NCBI GenBank assembly: GCA_026391835.1
Contig: JAPLDF010000075.1
Span: forward strand, 384,422 to 448,421
Length of the DNA stretch: 64,000 nucleotides
DNA from: Bacteroidota bacterium
GTDB lineage: Bacteria > Bacteroidota > Bacteroidia > Bacteroidales > FEN-979
Direction of reading: 5' to 3'
Part shown: positions 4,459-52,975 of the stretch, one piece after another
Numbering within the stretch: the stretch's first letter is position 1
Layout of the letters: every line of letters begins with the position of its first letter
Notes under the pieces: model-generated
The model's input: only the letters and a program-made list of their open reading frames with translations
What the model was told of the DNA's origin: nothing
The model's database searches: none
Position numbers and translations under genes: made by a program

Positions 4459-6600
4459 ATGGACAATCTGAACAAAACCAGGGAAGAACTTATGGATGAC
4501 CTGATTAAAATTCAGCAGGAACGTGAATCATTGCACACAAAGTTCCAGGCTGAAACCATCAAACGGTTGCAGGCAGAGGAACGGTTGCGATTCAATGAAG
4601 AAAAATATGAATTAATCGCTCATTCTACCCTGGAAACGATTTTTATCCTTGATCAGCGTGGACACTGCATTTTTTTTAATGACAGCCTGGAATCACTCCT
4701 GGGCTATAAAAACGAAGATGTAGTTGGTCTCCCTTTCACCAAATTTGTGCCCATTAAGGAAATACCAAGGTTTCTCATACAGCTGAAAAATGTTTTCATG
4801 GATAAAATTGTCCATGATTTTGTTACCCAGGTCTATCACAAGGACGGCCATCTTGTGGATGTTGAAATCAACGGAAAACTGACAAGGTACAAAGGAGAGT
4901 TGGCGGGGCAGGGCACCATCAGGGATGTTTCGGCGCGGATGCAGGTTCAGAATGCGTTGGAGGACAGCCTTCAAAGTTACAAGGGACTGTTTGATTCTGT
5001 TTCCGAGGCAATCTATATTCACAAGGAAGACGGTGTATTCATCAATGTGAACACCGGGGCTGTCAAAATGTATGGGTATTCACGCAATGAACTTATTGGC
5101 AGAAGCCCGGAGTTGGTTTCCGCCCCCGGGTTGAACGACCTGCAGGAAGTATCCAGGCTTATTCACAAGACAATGACCACCGGAAAGCCGGAACAGATGG
5201 AGTTCTGGGGCCTGAGGAAAAACGGGGAAATATTTCCCAAGGATGTGATTTTTCACAAAGGACTCTATAAGGGGGAGGAGGTGATCATCACGACTGCACG
5301 CGATATCACGGAACATAAACTCGCCGAACAGAACCTCCGCCTCTATAAGGAGATCATTGACCATTCCGCCGACGGCATTGCCATTCTTGACCTGAATGGT
5401 TTTTATATAGAACAGAATGATTCACATAAGGTTCTCATCGGCTTTACTGACAAGGAACTGGAAGGCAAAACACCCGCCATCCATCTTGGGGATGATACCT
5501 TTTCGATTATACAGCAGGAACTTGCAACACATGGCAGGTTCAAGGGGGAAGTTGTATCCCATACACGAAACGGGGATGCCGTCATTGAACTCAATGCATT
5601 CACTTTGAAAAATGACCAGGGGGAGATATTGTGCCAGATCGTCATTCAACGGGATATCACCAAACGAAAAAAAGCGGAACAGGCTTTGCGTGAAAGCGAA
5701 GCAAAATACAGGATCCTTGCCGAAAAGATGCATGACGTTGTCTGGATACTCAACCTCGACCTGCAGGTTGTATATGTCAGCCCATCCACTGAATATATAC
5801 TTGGGTTTACGCCCGAAGAACGTATGTCGATGCGGATTGATGAATGCATGGTTCCGGAGTCGCTCGATTATGCCATGCAGGTTCTTATCAACGAGGCTGT
5901 TACCAGCCAGGAGGCCAGTGCCGACAAGGGCAGGGGGGTGCTCCTGGAACTGGAATATTACCACAAAGATGGTTCTACGCGCTGGCTTGAGCAAAGTATC
6001 AACGGCATCTATGACGAAAACGGGGAACTTACCGAAATCATGGGCGTTGCAAGAGACATCACCGAGCGCAAAAAGGCAAATGATGCCCTGCAGCAAAATG
6101 CTGAAAGTTATCGCGCATTGTTCAACAGCGTCACCGACGCCATCTATGTGCTCGACCAGGATGGCAAATTTATTGATGTCAACCTGGGTGCCATTGACAT
6201 GTATGGGTATCCTCATGAAGTCCTTGTCGGAAAAGATCCTGCCTTTGTTTCCGCTCCCGGCATGAATGATTTTGAAAAAATTACGGAAATGCTGAAATCT
6301 GCATTCAAAGGTAATCCGCAACAGTTTGAATTCTGGGGTAAAAAATCAAACAATGAACATTTTCTAAAAGATGTACGGCTTCGCAATGGCACCTATTTCG
6401 GGCAAAAGGTGATTGTTGCCATTGCCCGGGATATCACCACCCGTAAACAGGCTGAAATAGCATTGACAAACAAGGTCAATGAACTGGAATGTCTGAACAA
6501 ACGGCTGACAGGTGAGGAGCAGCAACTTGCCAGCCTGAAACATGAAGTGAATGAACTGCTGGCAAAAATGGGTGAGGAAAAAAAATATTATGACGTATGA
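4459..6600 (+). CDS. multi-PAS/PAC sensor protein with no recognisable output domain
   Basis: 713 aa with an N-terminal coiled coil. Five PAS/PAC-like modules each end in an RD(I/V)(T/S) motif: IRDVSARM, ARDITEHK, QRDITKRK, ARDITERK, ARDITTRK. The C-terminus is a coiled coil. No H-box/HATPase, GGDEF, EAL or HTH motif was seen. Confidence 0.8.
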   Translation: MDNLNKTREELMDDLIKIQQERESLHTKFQAETIKRLQAEERLRFNEEKYELIAHSTLETIFILDQRGHCIFFNDSLESLLGYKNEDVVGLPFTKFVPIKEIPRFLIQLKNVFMDKIVHDFVTQVYHKDGHLVDVEINGKLTRYKGELAGQGTIRDVSARMQVQNALEDSLQSYKGLFDSVSEAIYIHKEDGVFINVNTGAVKMYGYSRNELIGRSPELVSAPGLNDLQEVSRLIHKTMTTGKPEQMEFWGLRKNGEIFPKDVIFHKGLYKGEEVIITTARDITEHKLAEQNLRLYKEIIDHSADGIAILDLNGFYIEQNDSHKVLIGFTDKELEGKTPAIHLGDDTFSIIQQELATHGRFKGEVVSHTRNGDAVIELNAFTLKNDQGEILCQIVIQRDITKRKKAEQALRESEAKYRILAEKMHDVVWILNLDLQVVYVSPSTEYILGFTPEERMSMRIDECMVPESLDYAMQVLINEAVTSQEASADKGRGVLLELEYYHKDGSTRWLEQSINGIYDENGELTEIMGVARDITERKKANDALQQNAESYRALFNSVTDAIYVLDQDGKFIDVNLGAIDMYGYPHEVLVGKDPAFVSAPGMNDFEKITEMLKSAFKGNPQQFEFWGKKSNNEHFLKDVRLRNGTYFGQKVIVAIARDITTRKQAEIALTNKVNELECLNKRLTGEEQQLASLKHEVNELLAKMGEEKKYYDV

Positions 6601-7952
6601 CGGTTGATTCACGAAGGATTTTTACCCTGAAACAGGCTGATACCGAGCCGGGCACGGTGGTTTACTGGATGCAGCGTGATCAGCGGGCTGGCGACAACTG
6701 GGCGCTGCTCTATGCCCAGGAAAGGGCTATTGCATTGCAACAGCCATTGATGGTTGTTTTTTGCCTCGTACCCGGCTACCTCGGCGCAACTGCCAGGCAA
6801 TATGGTTTTATGTTGAAAGGATTGGCTGTGGCTGCCCGCAGACTTTCAAGGTACAATATCCCTTTTACCCTCCTGCATGGTTTGCCGCAGGATGTGATCC
6901 CCAGGTTCCTGGTTGAATATGGCGCAGGAATGCTCATCACCGATTTTAACCCCCTGCATGTTCCTATGAACTGGCAGAAAAGGCTTGCGGAGCGGGTGGA
7001 AGTGCCTTTTTATGAAGTGGATGCCCACAATATCATTCCTTCACGGTTTATTTCGGACAAGCAGGAATATGCCGCCTTCACCCTGCGAAAAAAGGTTGAA
7101 CGCCTCTTGCCTGAGTTTCTCACTGAATTCCCGCTCCTGGTCAAACACCCTGATTTTCCCGATTCGGCAGAAGTGCCGGCCACCGACTGGGCTGAAGTGA
7201 TGAAGTCGCTGCAGGCCGATCGGGCGGTTCCCGAGGTGGATTGGCTTGTCGCGGGAGAAACTGCCGCCGTTGGATCATTGTCCGATTTCATTGGCTCACG
7301 GCTCGACCAGTATGAAACCGGTCGTAACTTTCCCGACAGGAAAGGCCAGTCGGATATGTCGCCCTACCTCCATTTCGGACATCTCTCGCCCCAGCGCCTG
7401 GCGATGGAAGTCCGGCAAAACGAAGCCGATCCGGGATCGAGGAAGGCTTTCCTGGAGGAGTTGATCGTGCGCAGGGAACTGGCTGACAATTTCTGCCTTT
7501 ACAACGCCAGCTATGACCGTTTCAGCGGATTTCATGCGTGGGCGCAGGCTTCACTGAACAAACACCGTGACGATCCCCGCGAATACTGCTATTCGTTGGA
7601 TACCCTCGAAGAGGGGAGAACCCATGATCCTTTGTGGAATGCTGCCCAGTTCGAAATGGTCTCCAAAGGAAAGATGCATGGTTTCATGCGGATGTACTGG
7701 GCCAAAAAGATACTGGAATGGACCGCCTCCCCCGAGGAGGCCATGGAGGCCGCCATATTCCTGAACGATAAATATGAACTTGACGGAAGGGATCCGAACG
7801 GGTATGCAGGAATTGCCTGGTCAATCGGCGGCGTACACGACCGCCCCTGGGGCGAACGCAAAATATTCGGCATGATCCGGTATATGAACTACCAGGGATG
7901 CAAACGTAAATTTGACATCAACGCCTACATTTCCCCAAATCGTAAATCGTAA
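6597..7952 (+). CDS. phr: deoxyribodipyrimidine photolyase, class II
   Basis: 451 aa. The N-terminus VVYWMQRDQRAGDNWALLYAQ...FCLVPGYLGATARQYGFMLKGL...ITDFNPL...FYEVDAHNIIP matches the class II CPD photolyase pattern (Methanosarcina/plant type). ATGA overlap with the upstream PAS gene. Confidence 0.88.
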   Translation: MTVDSRRIFTLKQADTEPGTVVYWMQRDQRAGDNWALLYAQERAIALQQPLMVVFCLVPGYLGATARQYGFMLKGLAVAARRLSRYNIPFTLLHGLPQDVIPRFLVEYGAGMLITDFNPLHVPMNWQKRLAERVEVPFYEVDAHNIIPSRFISDKQEYAAFTLRKKVERLLPEFLTEFPLLVKHPDFPDSAEVPATDWAEVMKSLQADRAVPEVDWLVAGETAAVGSLSDFIGSRLDQYETGRNFPDRKGQSDMSPYLHFGHLSPQRLAMEVRQNEADPGSRKAFLEELIVRRELADNFCLYNASYDRFSGFHAWAQASLNKHRDDPREYCYSLDTLEEGRTHDPLWNAAQFEMVSKGKMHGFMRMYWAKKILEWTASPEEAMEAAIFLNDKYELDGRDPNGYAGIAWSIGGVHDRPWGERKIFGMIRYMNYQGCKRKFDINAYISPNRKS

Positions 7953-7978
7953 ATCGTAAATCGTAAATTGTAAATTGT
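7937..7978 (+). repeat. heptanucleotide tandem array, 4x AAATCGT plus 2x AAATTGT
   Basis: Read directly: aaatcgt x4 at 7937-7964 and aaattgt x2 at 7965-7978. The array contains the phr stop codon (7950-7952) and ends exactly at the tag ATG (7979). Confidence 0.95.
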
Positions 7979-8563
7979 ATGTCCGGTCTTACCACCTGCC
8001 CCTGGCCCTCCACCGATCCCCTGATGATCAGGTACCATGATGAAGAATGGGGTGTGCCTCTGCACGATGACCTCAAATTATTTGAATTCCTGGTGCTCGA
8101 TGCATTCCAGGCCGGTCTGAACTGGAAGACTATTTTGCACAAAAGGGAGAATTTCAGAAAAGCATTTCACGGGTTTGACCTGCTGAAAATATCAGGTTAT
8201 GACGAGAGTGATTTTGAGCGGCTGATGTCAGATGCCGGCATCATCAGGAACAAGGCAAAAATAAATGGCACCATCCGGAATGCCAGGTGTTTTCTCGAGG
8301 TGCAAAAGGAATTCGGAACATTCGACAAGTATATCTGGCAGTTCACCGGTGGGAAAACCATCGACCACAACCTGACCACCCTTGATGCAATGAGATCATC
8401 ATCGCCGGAATCTGATGCGATGAGCAAAGACTTGAAATCGAGGGGATTCAAATTTGTCGGCACTACAATTTGTTACGCTTTTATGCAAGCCGCCGGTATG
8501 GTCAACGACCACCTCACTTGCTGCCGCCATCGCAAATCTAAAATCGTAAATCGTAAATCGTAA
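7979..8563 (+). CDS. tag: DNA-3-methyladenine glycosylase I
   Basis: 194 aa with the Tag signature CPWPSTDPLMIRYHDEEWGVPLHDDLKLFEFLVLDAFQAGLNWKTIL. Confidence 0.9.
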   Translation: MSGLTTCPWPSTDPLMIRYHDEEWGVPLHDDLKLFEFLVLDAFQAGLNWKTILHKRENFRKAFHGFDLLKISGYDESDFERLMSDAGIIRNKAKINGTIRNARCFLEVQKEFGTFDKYIWQFTGGKTIDHNLTTLDAMRSSSPESDAMSKDLKSRGFKFVGTTICYAFMQAAGMVNDHLTCCRHRKSKIVNRKS

Positions 8564-8568
8564 ATTGG
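8534..8568 (+). repeat. heptanucleotide tandem array (AAATCTA, 3x AAATCGT, AAATTGG)
   Basis: Read directly. Same unit and orientation as the 7937-7978 array. It contains the tag stop codon (8561-8563) and sits 3 nt from the stop of the convergent gene at 8572. Confidence 0.95.
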
Positions 8569-8571
8569 ATC

Positions 8572-9477
8572 TTAATCCTTCGGCACCCTGGGCTTCACGA
8601 TCGTGAACATCCTGTTGATGTTGAAACCAAGGAAAATGTCGCCATTGGACCATTTTCCGCGGGTATCGGTTAAAATGGGCTGCTCATATTCGCCGTAAGA
8701 GTTCGTAAGGAAGATCTGGAAAACGTGCCCGCCTGTTTCGATATCCACGCCCAGTGAAAACGAGTTGTAGGCTTTGGTCGAGACGACCTGTCCCTTGAAG
8801 AGGTAGTTGTATTCTGCGTTGACTGACACCCGCTGGCTTATCTTGATCCGGCCGCCGGCACCAAGTGTGAAGATGTCATTCTTGTCCTTTGAATCGTGAA
8901 CCATGTTTTTATGCACATAGGAGGGGGTGATCTGCAGCGAAAGGCTGTTTCCGAATTTCCGGGCGGCCATCAGCTGAAGGGCATAGGTGACGCGGGAACT
9001 GAAATAATTCTTACGCGACGGATCAGTCCATTTTGTGGTATAGATGGCCGTATTGCCATAGATGTCAAGCGTCAGGGGCATGTTCTTTGCTCCTTTGCAT
9101 TGACGGAGCAGCTTCACTTTTGCTGAGCCATCCCATGTGTTCTGATCTGTATTGATCCCCACTCCAATTCCAAGCCACCTTGTCACGCCGTATTCAACCC
9201 CCAGCCTGATGCTGGCCTGCTTAAGCCCGTAAAGGTTTTCATACCCGGTATTCAGTGCCCCGAAATGGTGGGTAATTAAAAAGTTCAGGTTGCCGGCGGG
9301 GGCTGTTTCAATCGACTGCCCGATGACAATGTGCGTCGATTTAAATGTTGCCGTGGTGTAATCCACTGTTGGTTTTTCACCTTTTTCGATCATCGACAGG
9401 AGGTCATCCTGGCCCCTGGCTGTTGAAACGCACATTGCTCCGGCGAATGCGAGCAGGAATAAAATGTTATTCTTCAT
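8572..9477 (-). CDS. putative outer-membrane beta-barrel protein (DUF5777-like, assigned from memory of the family)
   Basis: Start trimmed to M37 of the ORF (MKNNILFLLAFAGAMCVSTARGQ, a signal peptide). Alternating beta-strand-like sequence ends in ...LGFNINRMFTI. Starts 1 nt after the YceI-like gene stop. Confidence 0.6.
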   Translation of the reverse strand: MKNNILFLLAFAGAMCVSTARGQDDLLSMIEKGEKPTVDYTTATFKSTHIVIGQSIETAPAGNLNFLITHHFGALNTGYENLYGLKQASIRLGVEYGVTRWLGIGVGINTDQNTWDGSAKVKLLRQCKGAKNMPLTLDIYGNTAIYTTKWTDPSRKNYFSSRVTYALQLMAARKFGNSLSLQITPSYVHKNMVHDSKDKNDIFTLGAGGRIKISQRVSVNAEYNYLFKGQVVSTKAYNSFSLGVDIETGGHVFQIFLTNSYGEYEQPILTDTRGKWSNGDIFLGFNINRMFTIVKPRVPKD

Positions 9478-9478
9478 G

Positions 9479-10033
9479 TTACATGTTTGCTTTGTCCAAT
9501 GTAATATCGACGGTAATTTCAATGGTCTTGGAAATATTGTTACCAACATTGCCGGGAATGGTGATTTTATAATCGGCAACAACAATGTTGAATTTTGCCT
9601 TCCCGATTATTTTTCCCTGCTTTACTTCAAAGGTACCTTTCTCAGTCAAATCCTTTGTCACACCATGCATGGTCATTTTACCTTCGACATTTGCGTCGTA
9701 CATGCCATCTTTTAAAAGGTTGACATCTTTAATATTGGTCACCTTGCCAACGAAAGTAGCTGCGGGGTATTTGTCGGATTCAACATAATTTTCATTGAAA
9801 TGCTCCTGCATCAGCGCCTTTTCGAATTCAAAGGATTTCATCAGCACTTTGAAGACAAAACCACCTGTAGAGAAATCGAGCACACTATTTACCTGGCGGT
9901 TGTGCGCTTCTATTTTCTCCAGCTGGCCGTCAGAATAAAATTTAATATGTCCGGTCTTGGTGATATACTTTTGAGCGCCTGCAGAAAAAGCAGTCATGAA
10001 GACCAGGAGGAAAATGATACAAGACTTAGACAT
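9479..10033 (-). CDS. YceI-family periplasmic polyisoprenoid-binding-like protein
   Basis: 184 aa with a signal peptide. YceI-like pattern: GHIKFYSDGQLEKIEAHN...FEFEKALMQEHFNENYVESDKYPAATFVGK...MHGVTK. Confidence 0.75.
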   Translation of the reverse strand: MSKSCIIFLLVFMTAFSAGAQKYITKTGHIKFYSDGQLEKIEAHNRQVNSVLDFSTGGFVFKVLMKSFEFEKALMQEHFNENYVESDKYPAATFVGKVTNIKDVNLLKDGMYDANVEGKMTMHGVTKDLTEKGTFEVKQGKIIGKAKFNIVVADYKITIPGNVGNNISKTIEITVDITLDKANM

Positions 10034-20180: not shown

Positions 20181-20251
20181 CAAAAAATTCCGGATCGGCG
20201 GCCTTAGTTACCCTGTTACTTTTTGACACAGCAACCTCGTTGCCCTATTAC

Positions 20252-20283
20252 CTTGTCACCATGTCACCTTGTAACCCTGTCAC
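20252..20283 (+). repeat. octanucleotide tandem array, 4 units (CTTGTCAC CATGTCAC CTTGTAAC CCTGTCAC)
   Basis: Read directly. It sits in the presumed ffh 5' leader and generates the spurious LSPCHLVTLSP N-terminal extension of ORF 20223. Confidence 0.9.
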
Positions 20284-20324
20284 CATTCAGTTCGCTGTTC
20301 ACCGGAAAACTAACAAATCATAAA

Positions 20325-23192: not shown

Positions 23193-25135
23193 TCCCCGCA
23201 CGATTTTTCCTTGCATTTGTCATTTGTCATTTGTCATTTGTCGTTGCCTTTGGCCAGGGACAACATTTTTCAACCCGTGACAAGAAAGCGGAGAAATTGT
23301 TTTACCAGGCAATTGATTCATACCAGGGACAATTTTTAGACAAAGCGGCTGCAGAAGTAAAGAAGGCGCTCGACCAGGATCCGCTTTTCACGGAAGCATA
23401 CATCCTGCAGGGGGATATCTTTGCGGATAAAAGGCAATATGAAAAGGCCATTGATTCGTACCAGTCGGCTGTCCAGACCAACAACCCGTTTTCGCCAAAT
23501 CTATATTATGTCCTGGCCAACATGCAGTTAACCATCGGCAGGTATGCCGATTCGAGATCAAATTTTCAACGTTTCCTTGAAACAGACCAGCTTCCCGAAC
23601 CAAAAAGGCAGCAGGCCGAAAAGGCCATGCGAAATTGTGAATTTGCGCTGAAATGCATTGCAAATCCTGTACCCTTCGCACCGGTGAACATGGGCGATAG
23701 CATCAATACCAGATACGATGAGTATATCAATGCTGTTACACCCGATGAAGAGTGGCTCTATTTTACCCGCAAAAATCCGCGGGATGCGCAAACCATTGAC
23801 CAGGCCCAGGAGTTTGAAGAGGAATTTTACTTTACAAGGCAGGTCGATTCCACCTGGCTAACAGCCTTGAACCTTGGCGCTCCCATAAACACACACGGCA
23901 ATGAAGGTGCACTCAACATTTCCCCCGATGGGAACTATCTTTTTTTTGCCGCCTGCAACCGCGATGACGGCTATGGGAGTTGTGATATTTACTGGTCCAG
24001 GCATGTCGGAAACAAGTGGTCGGAGCCTGAGAACCTTGGCGGGGTGGTAAATTCAGCCCAGTGGGATTCCCAGCCATCCTTCTCATCCGATGGCAAAACC
24101 CTCTATTTTGCCAGCAAGCGCCCGGGAGGCAAGGGAAGCTCGGATATCTGGAAATCGCAGCTTCAGCCTGATGGCCAATGGAGTGTGCCTGTCAACCTGG
24201 GTGACCTTGTAAATACCAGGGCTGAGGAGATGGCTCCGTTTATACATCCCGATGATCAGACGCTCTATTTTTCTTCAAAAGGGCACCCGGGGCTTGGCGG
24301 GTATGACCTCTATTTTTCCCGGAAGCAGGTGGACAGTGACTGGGGGCAGCCGGTAAACATGGGATACCCGATAAATACTTTTGCAGATGAGATCACCCTG
24401 GTGGTCAATGCAAAAGGGAACCTGGCCTATATTTCATCAGATAAGTTTGGCGGGAAAGGGCGGCAGGATGTCTACCAGTTCCCGCTTTACCGGGAGGCTA
24501 GGCCATTGCTGACGACCTATTTCAAGGGGATCGTCTATGATGTCGAAACAAAAGAAAAACTGGAGGCCAGTTTCGAACTGATCGACCTGACTAATTCAAA
24601 AACCTGCGCAAGGGCCTCGTCCGATAAAGTTACCGGGGCGTTTTTGCTGGTTCTGCCTACTGAGAAAAACTATGCGCTGAATGTTTCCAGGGAGGGCTAT
24701 CTCTTCTTTTCCGACAATTTTTTTCTGACAGGGACCAATTTACAGGGGAAACCGTTTTTGAAAAATATTCCGCTCAAACCGATCAAAATAGGCGAGACGG
24801 TTGTACTGAAAAACATTTTCTTTGACACGGATAAATATATCCTGAAAGATGAGTCACTTGCCGAACTCCAGAAACTTATCGGCTTTATCAGGGATAATCC
24901 GAAACTTAAAATCGAGATCAGCGGACATACCGACAACGTCGGGAGTGCCGAACACAACCTCGAACTTTCCAGGAACAGGGCAAATGCAGTCTGCGAATTT
25001 CTCATCCAGCATAACATCGCAAAGACCGCACTGTCTTATGCCGGTTATGGATTCAGCCAGCCCATCGACGTCAATACCACCGAGCAGGGGAGAGCGAATA
25101 ACCGCCGCACTGAATTTAAAGTAGTGGGGAATTAA
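23189..25135 (+). CDS. OmpA-family protein with TPR and PD40/TolB-like beta-propeller repeats
   Basis: 648 aa with a signal peptide. PD40-like repeats (SPDGNYLFFA, SSDGKTLYFAS, HPDDQTLYFSS). OmpA_C motif NIFFDTDKY...ISGHTDNVGSAEHNLELSRNRANAV...NRRTEFKV. ATGA overlap with queE. Confidence 0.85.
   Translation: MIPARFFLAFVICHLSFVVAFGQGQHFSTRDKKAEKLFYQAIDSYQGQFLDKAAAEVKKALDQDPLFTEAYILQGDIFADKRQYEKAIDSYQSAVQTNNPFSPNLYYVLANMQLTIGRYADSRSNFQRFLETDQLPEPKRQQAEKAMRNCEFALKCIANPVPFAPVNMGDSINTRYDEYINAVTPDEEWLYFTRKNPRDAQTIDQAQEFEEEFYFTRQVDSTWLTALNLGAPINTHGNEGALNISPDGNYLFFAACNRDDGYGSCDIYWSRHVGNKWSEPENLGGVVNSAQWDSQPSFSSDGKTLYFASKRPGGKGSSDIWKSQLQPDGQWSVPVNLGDLVNTRAEEMAPFIHPDDQTLYFSSKGHPGLGGYDLYFSRKQVDSDWGQPVNMGYPINTFADEITLVVNAKGNLAYISSDKFGGKGRQDVYQFPLYREARPLLTTYFKGIVYDVETKEKLEASFELIDLTNSKTCARASSDKVTGAFLLVLPTEKNYALNVSREGYLFFSDNFFLTGTNLQGKPFLKNIPLKPIKIGETVVLKNIFFDTDKYILKDESLAELQKLIGFIRDNPKLKIEISGHTDNVGSAEHNLELSRNRANAVCEFLIQHNIAKTALSYAGYGFSQPIDVNTTEQGRANNRRTEFKVVGN
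23214..23241 (+). repeat. heptanucleotide tandem array, 4x CATTTGT, inside the signal-peptide coding region
   Basis: Read directly; it encodes the FVICHLSFV part of the signal peptide, starting 25 nt after the ATG. Confidence 0.95.
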
Positions 25136-27728: not shown

Positions 27729-27801
27729 GGGCGGGTTCAAAACCCGCCCGCACCATAGACGGGTAGGAACCCGCCCGCACCATAGACGGGTAGGAACCCG
27801 C
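27729..27801 (+). repeat. 9-bp-stem hairpin followed by 2.3 copies of a 27-nt tandem repeat in the infC-rpmI spacer
   Basis: Hairpin GGGCGGGTT-caa-AACCCGCCC at 27729-27749. Unit aacccgcccgcaccatagacgggtagg occurs at 27741-27767 and 27768-27794, with a partial third copy at 27795-27801. Confidence 0.9.
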
Positions 27802-52928: not shown

Positions 52929-52975
52929 AAGTTAAAAAGCGAAATGGTGAAAAAGCGAAAGGATGAAATAATATG

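Follow-up and report, generated by a model that had tools for sequence, protein, structure and literature searches.

Why should a single gene lie between two arrays of the same heptanucleotide, both in the same orientation? The question is raised by tag in the stretch of DNA considered here (hereafter the window), which is the whole 64,000 nucleotides analysed from a Bacteroidota bacterium (Bacteroidales, FEN-979) and corresponds to G000:C86:384422-448421, that is, contig JAPLDF010000075.1 of assembly GCA_026391835.1 (5.35 Mb, 86 contigs, 47.7% GC; G000 below). A preliminary description of the sequence had proposed that the AAATCGT-type arrays on either side bracket tag as a unit, and that they could mark a cassette-like insertion, mediate deletion or duplication of the gene by recombination, or act as a spacer that tunes its coupling to the upstream gene phr. 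There is nothing exceptional about these two arrays: they belong to a family of (AAATCGT)n modules, about 32 nt long, that is dispersed, polar and quantised in length. Our overall reading, in which we have reasonable but by no means full confidence, is that this family resembles the short tandemly repeated repetitive (STRR) heptamers and TAACTGA repeats of other bacteria, and that between phr and tag one module serves as an unstructured, A-rich intercistronic leader lacking a Shine-Dalgarno (SD) sequence. The features concerned are the following.

6597-7952, forward strand: phr, encoding a deoxyribodipyrimidine photolyase (PF00875, E=6.8e-27).
7937-7978, forward strand: array 1, four AAATCGT units and then two AAATTGT units (direct reading and Tandem Repeats Finder, TRF).
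7979-8563, forward strand: tag, encoding DNA-3-methyladenine glycosylase I (PF03352, E=6.3e-80, residues 9-183).
8534-8568, forward strand: array 2, consisting in order of AAATCTA, three AAATCGT units and AAATTGG (direct reading and TRF).
8572-9477, reverse strand: a DUF5777 outer-membrane beta-barrel gene, convergent with tag (PF19089, E=7.6e-90).

The arrays themselves are exactly as first described, with six and five units, respectively, arranged head to tail with a period of 7 and in direct orientation, both by direct reading and by TRF, which places array 1 at 7937-7979 (6.1 copies, 97% match) and array 2 at 8529-8565 (5.3 copies). They have the variant AAATCGTAAATTG as a common 3' end. 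A probe of two units (AAATCGTAAATCGT, up to two mismatches) has 10 matches in the window, compared with 0.68 expected, and none of 100 shuffles reaches 10. The tag ATG at 7979 adjoins array 1 without a spacer, as had been stated; array 1 comprises the entire 26-nt interval between phr and tag together with a 16-nt overlap into the 3' end of phr. Array 2 ends 3 nt from the DUF5777 stop codon (8572-8574) by inspection, or 6 nt if the TRF end at 8565 is used. Both phr and tag were said to terminate inside an array with the tail NRKS*, and they do, each at an array-internal TAA: the Phr C-terminus is ...ISPNRKS*, with the last five codons and stop (NRKS*) encoded by array 1, and that of Tag is ...KSKIVNRKS*, with approximately the last 10 residues (RKSKIVNRKS*) encoded by array 2. 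AAATCGT arrays carry TAA in all three frames, and an open reading frame (ORF) that enters one terminates within 21 nt. The complementary strand had been described as free of stop codons. Reverse-strand ORFs at 7918-8142 and 8399-8653 traverse the arrays ("FTIYDLRFTIYDL"), and so the complement is stop-free in at least one frame; by inspection, ACGATTT and ACAATTT are stop-free in every frame.

The shared tails and array-encoded stops are by-products: NRKS* is the C-terminus of five proteins in G000, and a 7- or 8-mer array contains the stop codon of 99 genes (2.7%). Among orthologues of Phr and of Tag, the C-termini differ in both length and sequence from exactly the point at which the arrays begin, those of Tag ending near ...HLxxC plus 3-15 residues.

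Tandem repeats of this kind are found throughout G000. When at least three perfect copies are required, period 7 is represented by 144 arrays and period 8 by 116, and each of the periods 5, 6, 9, 10 and 11 by no more than seven; with a threshold of 2.8 copies, TRF recovers 738 heptamer or octamer arrays (459 and 279, respectively) and at most 75 for any other period. They belong to several dozen 7- and 8-nt families, which populate the spacers of G000 and its congeners alike, AAATCGT being the largest in G000 (family sizes by TRF: AAATCGT 125, AAGTGAC 59, ACAGGCGG 47, AATTACG 29 and ACGGGCGG 25). With genes called throughout the genome by a home-made caller (longest ORF plus codon log-odds), the intergenic share is 89% of the perfect arrays (220 of 248), and 586 of the 738 TRF arrays are mostly intergenic, in a genome of which 88% is genic. 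The length of an AAATCGT array is mostly 29-36 nt, with a mode at 32-33 nt, and a recurrent layout is AAATCGT AAATCnn AAATCGT AAATCGT AAATC; many copies start with the variant AAATCTA and finish with AAATTG, like the arrays in the window. Where two arrays of one family lie no more than 100 bp apart, they form an inverted pair 21 times and a direct pair once, and for AAATCGT the order of an inverted pair is invariably 5'-(ACGATTT)n-loop-(AAATCGT)n-3'. AAATCGT arrays occupy 110 of 3775 spacers and flank nine genes on both sides (3.06 expected, P=0.004); the pairs are direct at four of these nine genes, and all four are co-oriented with the gene that they enclose. The arrangement around tag is therefore a recurrent one, with modest local clustering, and the arrays do not single out tag as a unit.

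AAATCGT arrays sit non-randomly at gene boundaries, and do so in a polar manner. The 87 solo intergenic copies lie much closer to an ORF boundary at one end than at the other, the median gap being 4 nt for the 3' end and 45 nt for the 5' end (Wilcoxon p=3e-8). In 57 of them the 3' end points at a start codon (p=0.005), the median distance being 6 nt and 48 copies coming within 20 nt; the 3' end most often stops 3-9 nt short of an ATG. Choosing the longest ORF could in principle produce such proximity to starts as an artefact. This was ruled out, since the 5'-side gaps of AAATCGT are wide and since AAGTGAC, a control family whose unit likewise carries a stop codon and would be subject to the same artefact, lies at a median distance of 56 nt. 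Arrays of several families (AAGTGAC, AAATGAC, ACAGGCGG, ACGGGCGG and AAACGGGT) start inside, or 0-1 nt past, the stop codon of a preceding gene that runs in the same direction; unlike these, AAATCGT arrays end just before start codons. Two units can also share a composite spacer, as in [CTTGTCA]n[AAATCGT]n-ATG at trpS and mnmE.

What kind of leader do the modules provide? The start codon is ATG in 43 of 48 array-led genes, and the leaders (-40 to +20) fold more weakly than controls, with a minimum free energy (MFE) of -2.7 versus -6.0 kcal/mol (p=2e-10). The start context in G000 has no SD motif, with 50% A at -14 to -11 and no more than 15% G at -16 to -6. The last AAAT of an array starts at -8 in 15 of 49 cases, which is the peak, and between -7 and -9 in 23 of 49; at tag it starts at -7. 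Array 1 places A-triplets at -7 to -5 and -14 to -12 from the tag ATG, and its RNA is less structured than shuffled sequences (z=+1.05), the centroid being unpaired. Array 2 is unstructured whichever strand is considered (z=+1.67 and +1.26). A role as a terminator or as a hairpin resembling repetitive extragenic palindromic (REP) elements was ruled out, the MFE values of -3.4 and -8.9 kcal/mol being weaker than those of shuffled sequences (z=+1.05 and +1.67). Array 1 is thus a typical start-anchored solo module, whereas array 2 is a solo module in a tail-to-tail spacer, with its 3' end adjoining the stop codon of the convergent DUF5777 gene.

On this basis, array 1 would be a functional spacer that ends phr translation in any frame and gives tag an unstructured, A-rich, SD-less leader of the type apparently preferred by Bacteroidota ribosomes, with its A-triplets falling near the A-rich -14 to -11 patch favoured by G000 starts. 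Array 2 would be a passenger, which occupied an 8-nt tail-to-tail spacer and overwrote the variable C-terminus of tag. The proposal that the first array tunes the coupling of phr and tag survives in part: array 1 is the whole intercistronic spacer and its unit number varies between species, which makes a coupling or leader role plausible.

Such variation in unit number also invites the idea that tag is a phase-variable contingency locus, its expression being switched or graded by slippage. There is a precedent in the hmw1A and hmw2A genes of Haemophilus influenzae, where upstream heptanucleotide simple sequence repeats (SSRs) undergo phase variation and unit number modulates expression (PMC8262952, PMC12721329). 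Like those, array 1 consists of 7-nt units in tandem on the 5' side of a gene, here lying between the upstream stop codon and the start codon, and unit numbers differ between species at the trpS and argF leaders as well as at this one. The Haemophilus case is, however, a single-locus adhesin contingency with documented heterogeneity, and in G000 there are more than 100 copies at housekeeping genes, narrow in length. The length distribution, with its mode at 32-33 nt, argues against phase variation, as does the placing of approximately 125 copies before housekeeping rather than surface or restriction genes. The array-led genes include pckG, trpS, argF, mnmE, nfo, phoU and tag, and they show no tendency to be surface, restriction-modification or other contingency genes. 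We consider phase variation at tag quite improbable, although congener assemblies do break at such arrays, as a phase-variable tract might lead one to expect. Congener contigs often begin or end in AAATCGT arrays (contigs C94, C133, C145 and C190 of G011; G012:C122:1-665), and in G012 only 5 nt separate the start of pckG from the end of its contig. It follows that short-read assemblies are interrupted by these repeats and that the array counts are too low.

Comparison with congeners bears on whether tag is mobile. The suggestion of a cassette, or of RecA-mediated deletion or duplication between direct arrays, is encouraged by the two direct repeats of 25-30 nt with their common AAATCGTAAATTG end and by the excess of doubly flanked genes noted above. 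Tag, on the other hand, is an ordinary PF03352 protein with orthologues of 71-82% identity in 32 of 39 congeners; about 23 of 30 congeneric loci have phr directly upstream of tag, with arrays or without, and the 3' end of the DUF5777 gene is kept downstream in many congeners. Orthologous junctions in other species carry unrelated units. Insertion of tag as a cassette is ruled out by the conservation of phr-tag-DUF5777 synteny with and without arrays. The preliminary description had also looked to the presence or absence of tag in relatives; in all five tag-less congeners tested phr is missing too, so that no loss of tag alone was seen among them and deletion of tag by itself is rejected. We conclude that tag is an ordinary, vertically inherited gene, and regard the cassette and recombination alternative as very improbable, indeed as largely refuted at the species level. 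One part of it has some substance. In the genome G055 (labelled 'uncultured Draconibacterium sp.'), tag lies between composite direct repeats of about 80 nt with shared unique flanks that include the tag leader:

G055:C138 (NCBI CAZPWZ010000138), both flanks of tag: the repeat [CGGGACA]n-cgaaaaa-[AAATCGT]n-actccctcat.

It follows that local segmental duplication, conversion or recombination between such arrays does occur. A comparison at the strain level gave nothing: the exact Tag protein is in no recorded contig, and a 28-nt pattern spanning the tag start matches no metagenome contig.

The arrays at the phr-tag junction are themselves changeable. They are of the AAATCGT type in about 10 species, and elsewhere the units include TCGTCAC, AAGTGAC, TTTGTCA, GAAATCT, CGTCACC and TAATTTT. 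Similarly, the orthologous pckG, trpS and argF leaders have arrays in most of five congeners, with species-specific units that in G051 are never AAATCGT; taken over all four junctions, the unit types include AAATCGT, AAGTGAC, TCGTCAC, TTTGTCA and TAATTAG.

A clue to how a family of modules might be maintained comes from genes of the PF05635 family (23S_rRNA_IVP, Avd-like). There are 12 in G000, of which at least 10 lie between inverted 7- or 8-mer tandem arms, each with its own unit; by a strict automatic criterion the odds ratio for this association is 56 (p=4e-6). Of the seven array families with most members, five share their unit with the arms of a PF05635 cassette. The cassette relevant to the window lies outside it:

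G000:C72:160293-160799: a PF05635 cassette with ACGATTT/AAATCGT inverted arms, whose protein ends ...PKSKIVNRKS*.

The tail KSKIVNRKS* of this protein is the same as the array-encoded tail of Tag, and the AAATCTA variant at the 5' end of array 2 and the AAATTG at its 3' end are those of the 3' arm of the cassette. The closest solved relative of the protein is 2RLD (E=6.5e-20), an entry with five chains, and the PF05635 protein is probably pentameric. The tag locus has no such cassette, the gene between its arrays being tag (PF03352) and not a PF05635 ORF; nor are the arrays inverted, both having AAATCGT on the forward strand, with zero ACGATTT arrays in the window and no stem predicted. Association of the PF05635 genes with diversity-generating retroelements was rejected, as G000 has only two reverse transcriptase genes, on contigs without PF05635.

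The C72 cassette occupies the same syntenic position throughout the genus, its outer flanks being conserved and its arm unit depending on the species. In the lines below, each genome is followed by its arm unit and by the numbers of genome-wide matches to AAATCGTx3 and to AAGTGACx3, in that order.

G000: AAATCGT arms, 54, 53
G002: AAATCGT arms, 337, 8
G023: AAATCGT arms, 131, 0
G048: AAATCGT arms, 10, 1
G012: AAATCGT arms, 171, 0
G011: AAATCGT arms, 162, 0
G045: AAATCGT arms, 39, 0
G021: AAATCGT arms, 58, 0
G005: AAGTGAC arms, 1, 23
G051: AAGTGAC arms, 0, 48
G004: AAGTGAC arms, 2, 7
G052: AAGTGAC arms, 1, 7

The cassette arm unit thus co-varies with the family that is abundant genome-wide. The eight genomes with AAATCGT arms have 10-337 AAATCGTx3 matches and, except for G000, 0-8 of AAGTGACx3; the four with AAGTGAC arms have 0-2 and 7-48, respectively. 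In a tree of phr and tag the arm types are interspersed rather than monophyletic, G012 grouping, for example, with G051, and G045 with G013. The genus thus offers a natural experiment in which a syntenic arm unit and the dominant family switch together. As it stands the link is a correlation. In our overall reading, the modules would be spread or homogenised by a copy process tied to the cassettes rather than by independent slippage at each site. A more tentative suggestion, which appears to us possible but on balance doubtful, is that PF05635 proteins (Avd-like four-helix bundles) are trans-acting partners or propagators of the heptamer and octamer repeats, the arm unit defining the family that is copied around the genome. 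Modules of about five units would then be copied or homogenised and placed at ORF boundaries with fixed polarity. Were this so, the AAATCGT modules before tag and about 50 other genes could be a protein-addressable layer on translation-initiation regions, and the excess and sporadic cross-phylum spread of bacterial 7-nt repeats might be explained. A causal link would provide a protein handle on the repeats and, possibly, a new layer of SD-independent translation control in Bacteroidota. No paper linking PF05635 to heptamer arrays was found in literature searches. In a CRISPR-discovery study, "23S rRNA IVP" is listed among the proteins associated with CRISPR-like arrays (PMC10910872), which may reflect the detection of cassette tandem arms as repeat arrays.

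A different possibility is that the modules are operator-like sites, in mRNA or DNA, for a factor acting in trans, either the cognate PF05635 protein or a single-strand binder of the Csp or S1 type, and so define a post-transcriptional regulon. The forward, start-proximal orientation matches that of TAACTGA in 'Maribeggiatoa' (PMC4679880), and a module of about 4.6 units is suggestive beside the five chains of the 2RLD entry. The co-variation of arm unit and family, together with the 12 PF05635 genes that each have an arm unit of their own and the five matches among the seven top families, would also suit such a regulon. We nevertheless think it unlikely: the downstream genes (pckG, trpS, argF, mnmE, nfo and tag) are unrelated housekeeping genes, the AAGTGAC family of G000 is without a cassette, and PF05635 density and array density are not significantly related.

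Several observations weigh against our interpretation of the modules as leaders spread in connection with cassettes. Thirty of the 87 solo arrays, array 2 among them, face a stop codon and not a start codon, and therefore at most some copies can be leaders. No array is present at the phr-tag junction in about 10 species, four of which (G050, G015, G016 and G007) have phr directly upstream, and so the array is dispensable there. The gene caller is crude, and some orientations are wrong. As regards the cassettes, the congeners are not independent and the species tree is a two-gene tree (phr and tag). G000, with its 59 AAGTGAC arrays, and G014, which has many, lack a matching AAGTGAC-armed cassette, the one candidate in G000, a fragment on C47, proving to be of the GTACRAA type; G006 and G014 fall off the cross-tabulation of arm unit and family. 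Across 13 genomes the relation between the densities of PF05635 genes and of 7- and 8-mer arrays is positive but not significant (rho=0.41, p=0.16), and a PF05635 ORF is present at only six of 119 cross-phylum AAATCGT loci, approximately three times the base rate.

Some of these points would be expected if the arrays were neutral or selfish SSRs, arising from slippage or conversion and without a role in phr or tag expression, tolerated only in places where no gene is disrupted, their position and orientation being the outcome of purifying selection. According to Rehm 2015 (PMC4692102), citing Mrazek 2007, the genomes of many bacteria contain an excess of long heptamer SSRs, for which slippage of the polymerase has been suggested as the source. 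Besides the array-free congeners and the third of solo arrays that face stop codons, the fast turnover of units between species and the lack of conservation of array-encoded protein tails fit with this account. It is a real but lesser possibility. Free slippage predicts broad lengths, and what is observed is a tight peak at 32-33 nt with a common layout and common end variants. Nor does neutrality readily account for the one-sided anchoring to ORF boundaries (4 versus 45 nt, p=3e-8) and the preferred phase relative to the ATG, for the way in which a given leader keeps an array in different species although the unit is replaced, or for a genome-wide unit identity that follows the cassette arms.

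How does this family relate to repeats already described? Intergenic heptamer repeats have reportedly been noted since 1990, as STRR sequences, and an excess of long simple sequence repeats (LSSRs) is said to have been quantified in 2007. To our knowledge, neither the origin nor the function of intergenic heptamer repeats is known. The AAATCGT modules are members of this known but unexplained class of bacterial 7-base repeats.

The closest published description of such modules is that of the TAACTGA repeats, which are of the same kind though not of the same family. These are intergenic direct heptamer repeats of marine Beggiatoaceae, Cyanobacteria and five Bacteroidetes, for which a single-strand binder of the Csp or S1 type has been proposed (MacGregor 2015, PMC4679880). 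In both cases tandem 7-nt units are found between genes in sets of two to six copies, with more than 100 sets per genome; they run forward, a few nucleotides before SD-less starts, with stop codons in the unit, a sporadic phylogeny and indels in 7-nt steps between strains. The unit AAATCGT is, however, not mentioned in that paper and a link to PF05635 cassettes is not reported there; furthermore, many 7- and 8-nt families coexist here, with a length quantised at about 32 nt. The STRR heptamers of heterocystous cyanobacteria and the GGGAATC and GGGGA(C/T)T repeats of Xanthomonas and Nostoc (PMC4692102) share with AAATCGT the period of 7 and intergenic enrichment, and likewise lie between the same genes in relatives with variable length and sequence, some as inverted repeats. 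They are G-rich and have been studied as G-quadruplex formers, in contrast to the A/T-rich, unstructured and start-anchored AAATCGT arrays. Finally, the ORF-bearing intervening sequences (IVSs) of 23S rRNA, which encode PF05635 proteins (2RLD), have a small PF05635 gene in a loop between inverted arms, and so resemble the G000 cassettes, of which one uses exactly AAATCGT and at least 10 of 12 have 7- or 8-nt tandem arms. The G000 cassettes differ in lying between protein genes and not in rRNA, with no adjacent reverse transcriptase, and the tag locus differs from both in having direct arrays and no PF05635 gene. Set beside these systems, G000 is an unusually clean case, with dozens of coexisting unit families, a quantised module length, strict anchoring to ORF boundaries with fixed polarity and the joint switching of arm unit and dominant family within the genus. 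There is also a practical consequence for annotation, since the arrays create spurious NRKS* tails, stop about 3% of genes and break assemblies.

Beyond G000, 16 of 24 congeners contain AAATCGTx3 (the range being 0-337 matches per genome), and all 16 genomes taken from other families within the order lack it. Sampled phylum-wide, it is present in 20 of 401 genomes, and a reversed control pattern in one. Exact AAATCGTx4 is found in many other phyla, including Chloroflexota, Verrucomicrobiota (Akkermansia among them), Acidobacteriota, Desulfobacterota and Planctomycetota, and also in Gammaproteobacteria and Ignavibacteria; the loci in metagenome-assembled genomes include ones from Chloroflexia, Anaerolineales, Desulfococcaceae, Chromatiales, Armatimonadota and Sedimentisphaerales. 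The polarity seen in G000 recurs in these cross-phylum arrays, in that 44 of 147 have an ATG with an ORF within 30 nt of the 3' end, compared with eight of 147 for the 5'-end control.

Some smaller points concern the neighbourhood of tag and the rest of the window. The start of phr overlaps by 4 nt (ATGA, 6597-6600) the stop of an upstream ORF for a 713-residue PAS-domain sensor (4459-6600), and the sensor, phr and tag may therefore form a single transcription unit. The longest ORF of the DUF5777 gene is 8572-9585, of which the ATG of MKNNILF... is a likelier start than the upstream TTG. Three further 7- or 8-mer arrays lie in the window, all intergenic by the home-made calls:

20250-20286: ACCATGTC, 4.6 copies.
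23214-23242: CATTTGT, 4.1 copies (AAATGAC family).
52934-52960: AAAAAGCG, 3.4 copies.

A perfect 27-nt tandem repeat at 27732-27801 (AACCCGCCCGCACCATAGACGGGTAGG, 2.3 copies, 100% match), overlapped by a second 27-nt register, is unrelated to the heptamer families.

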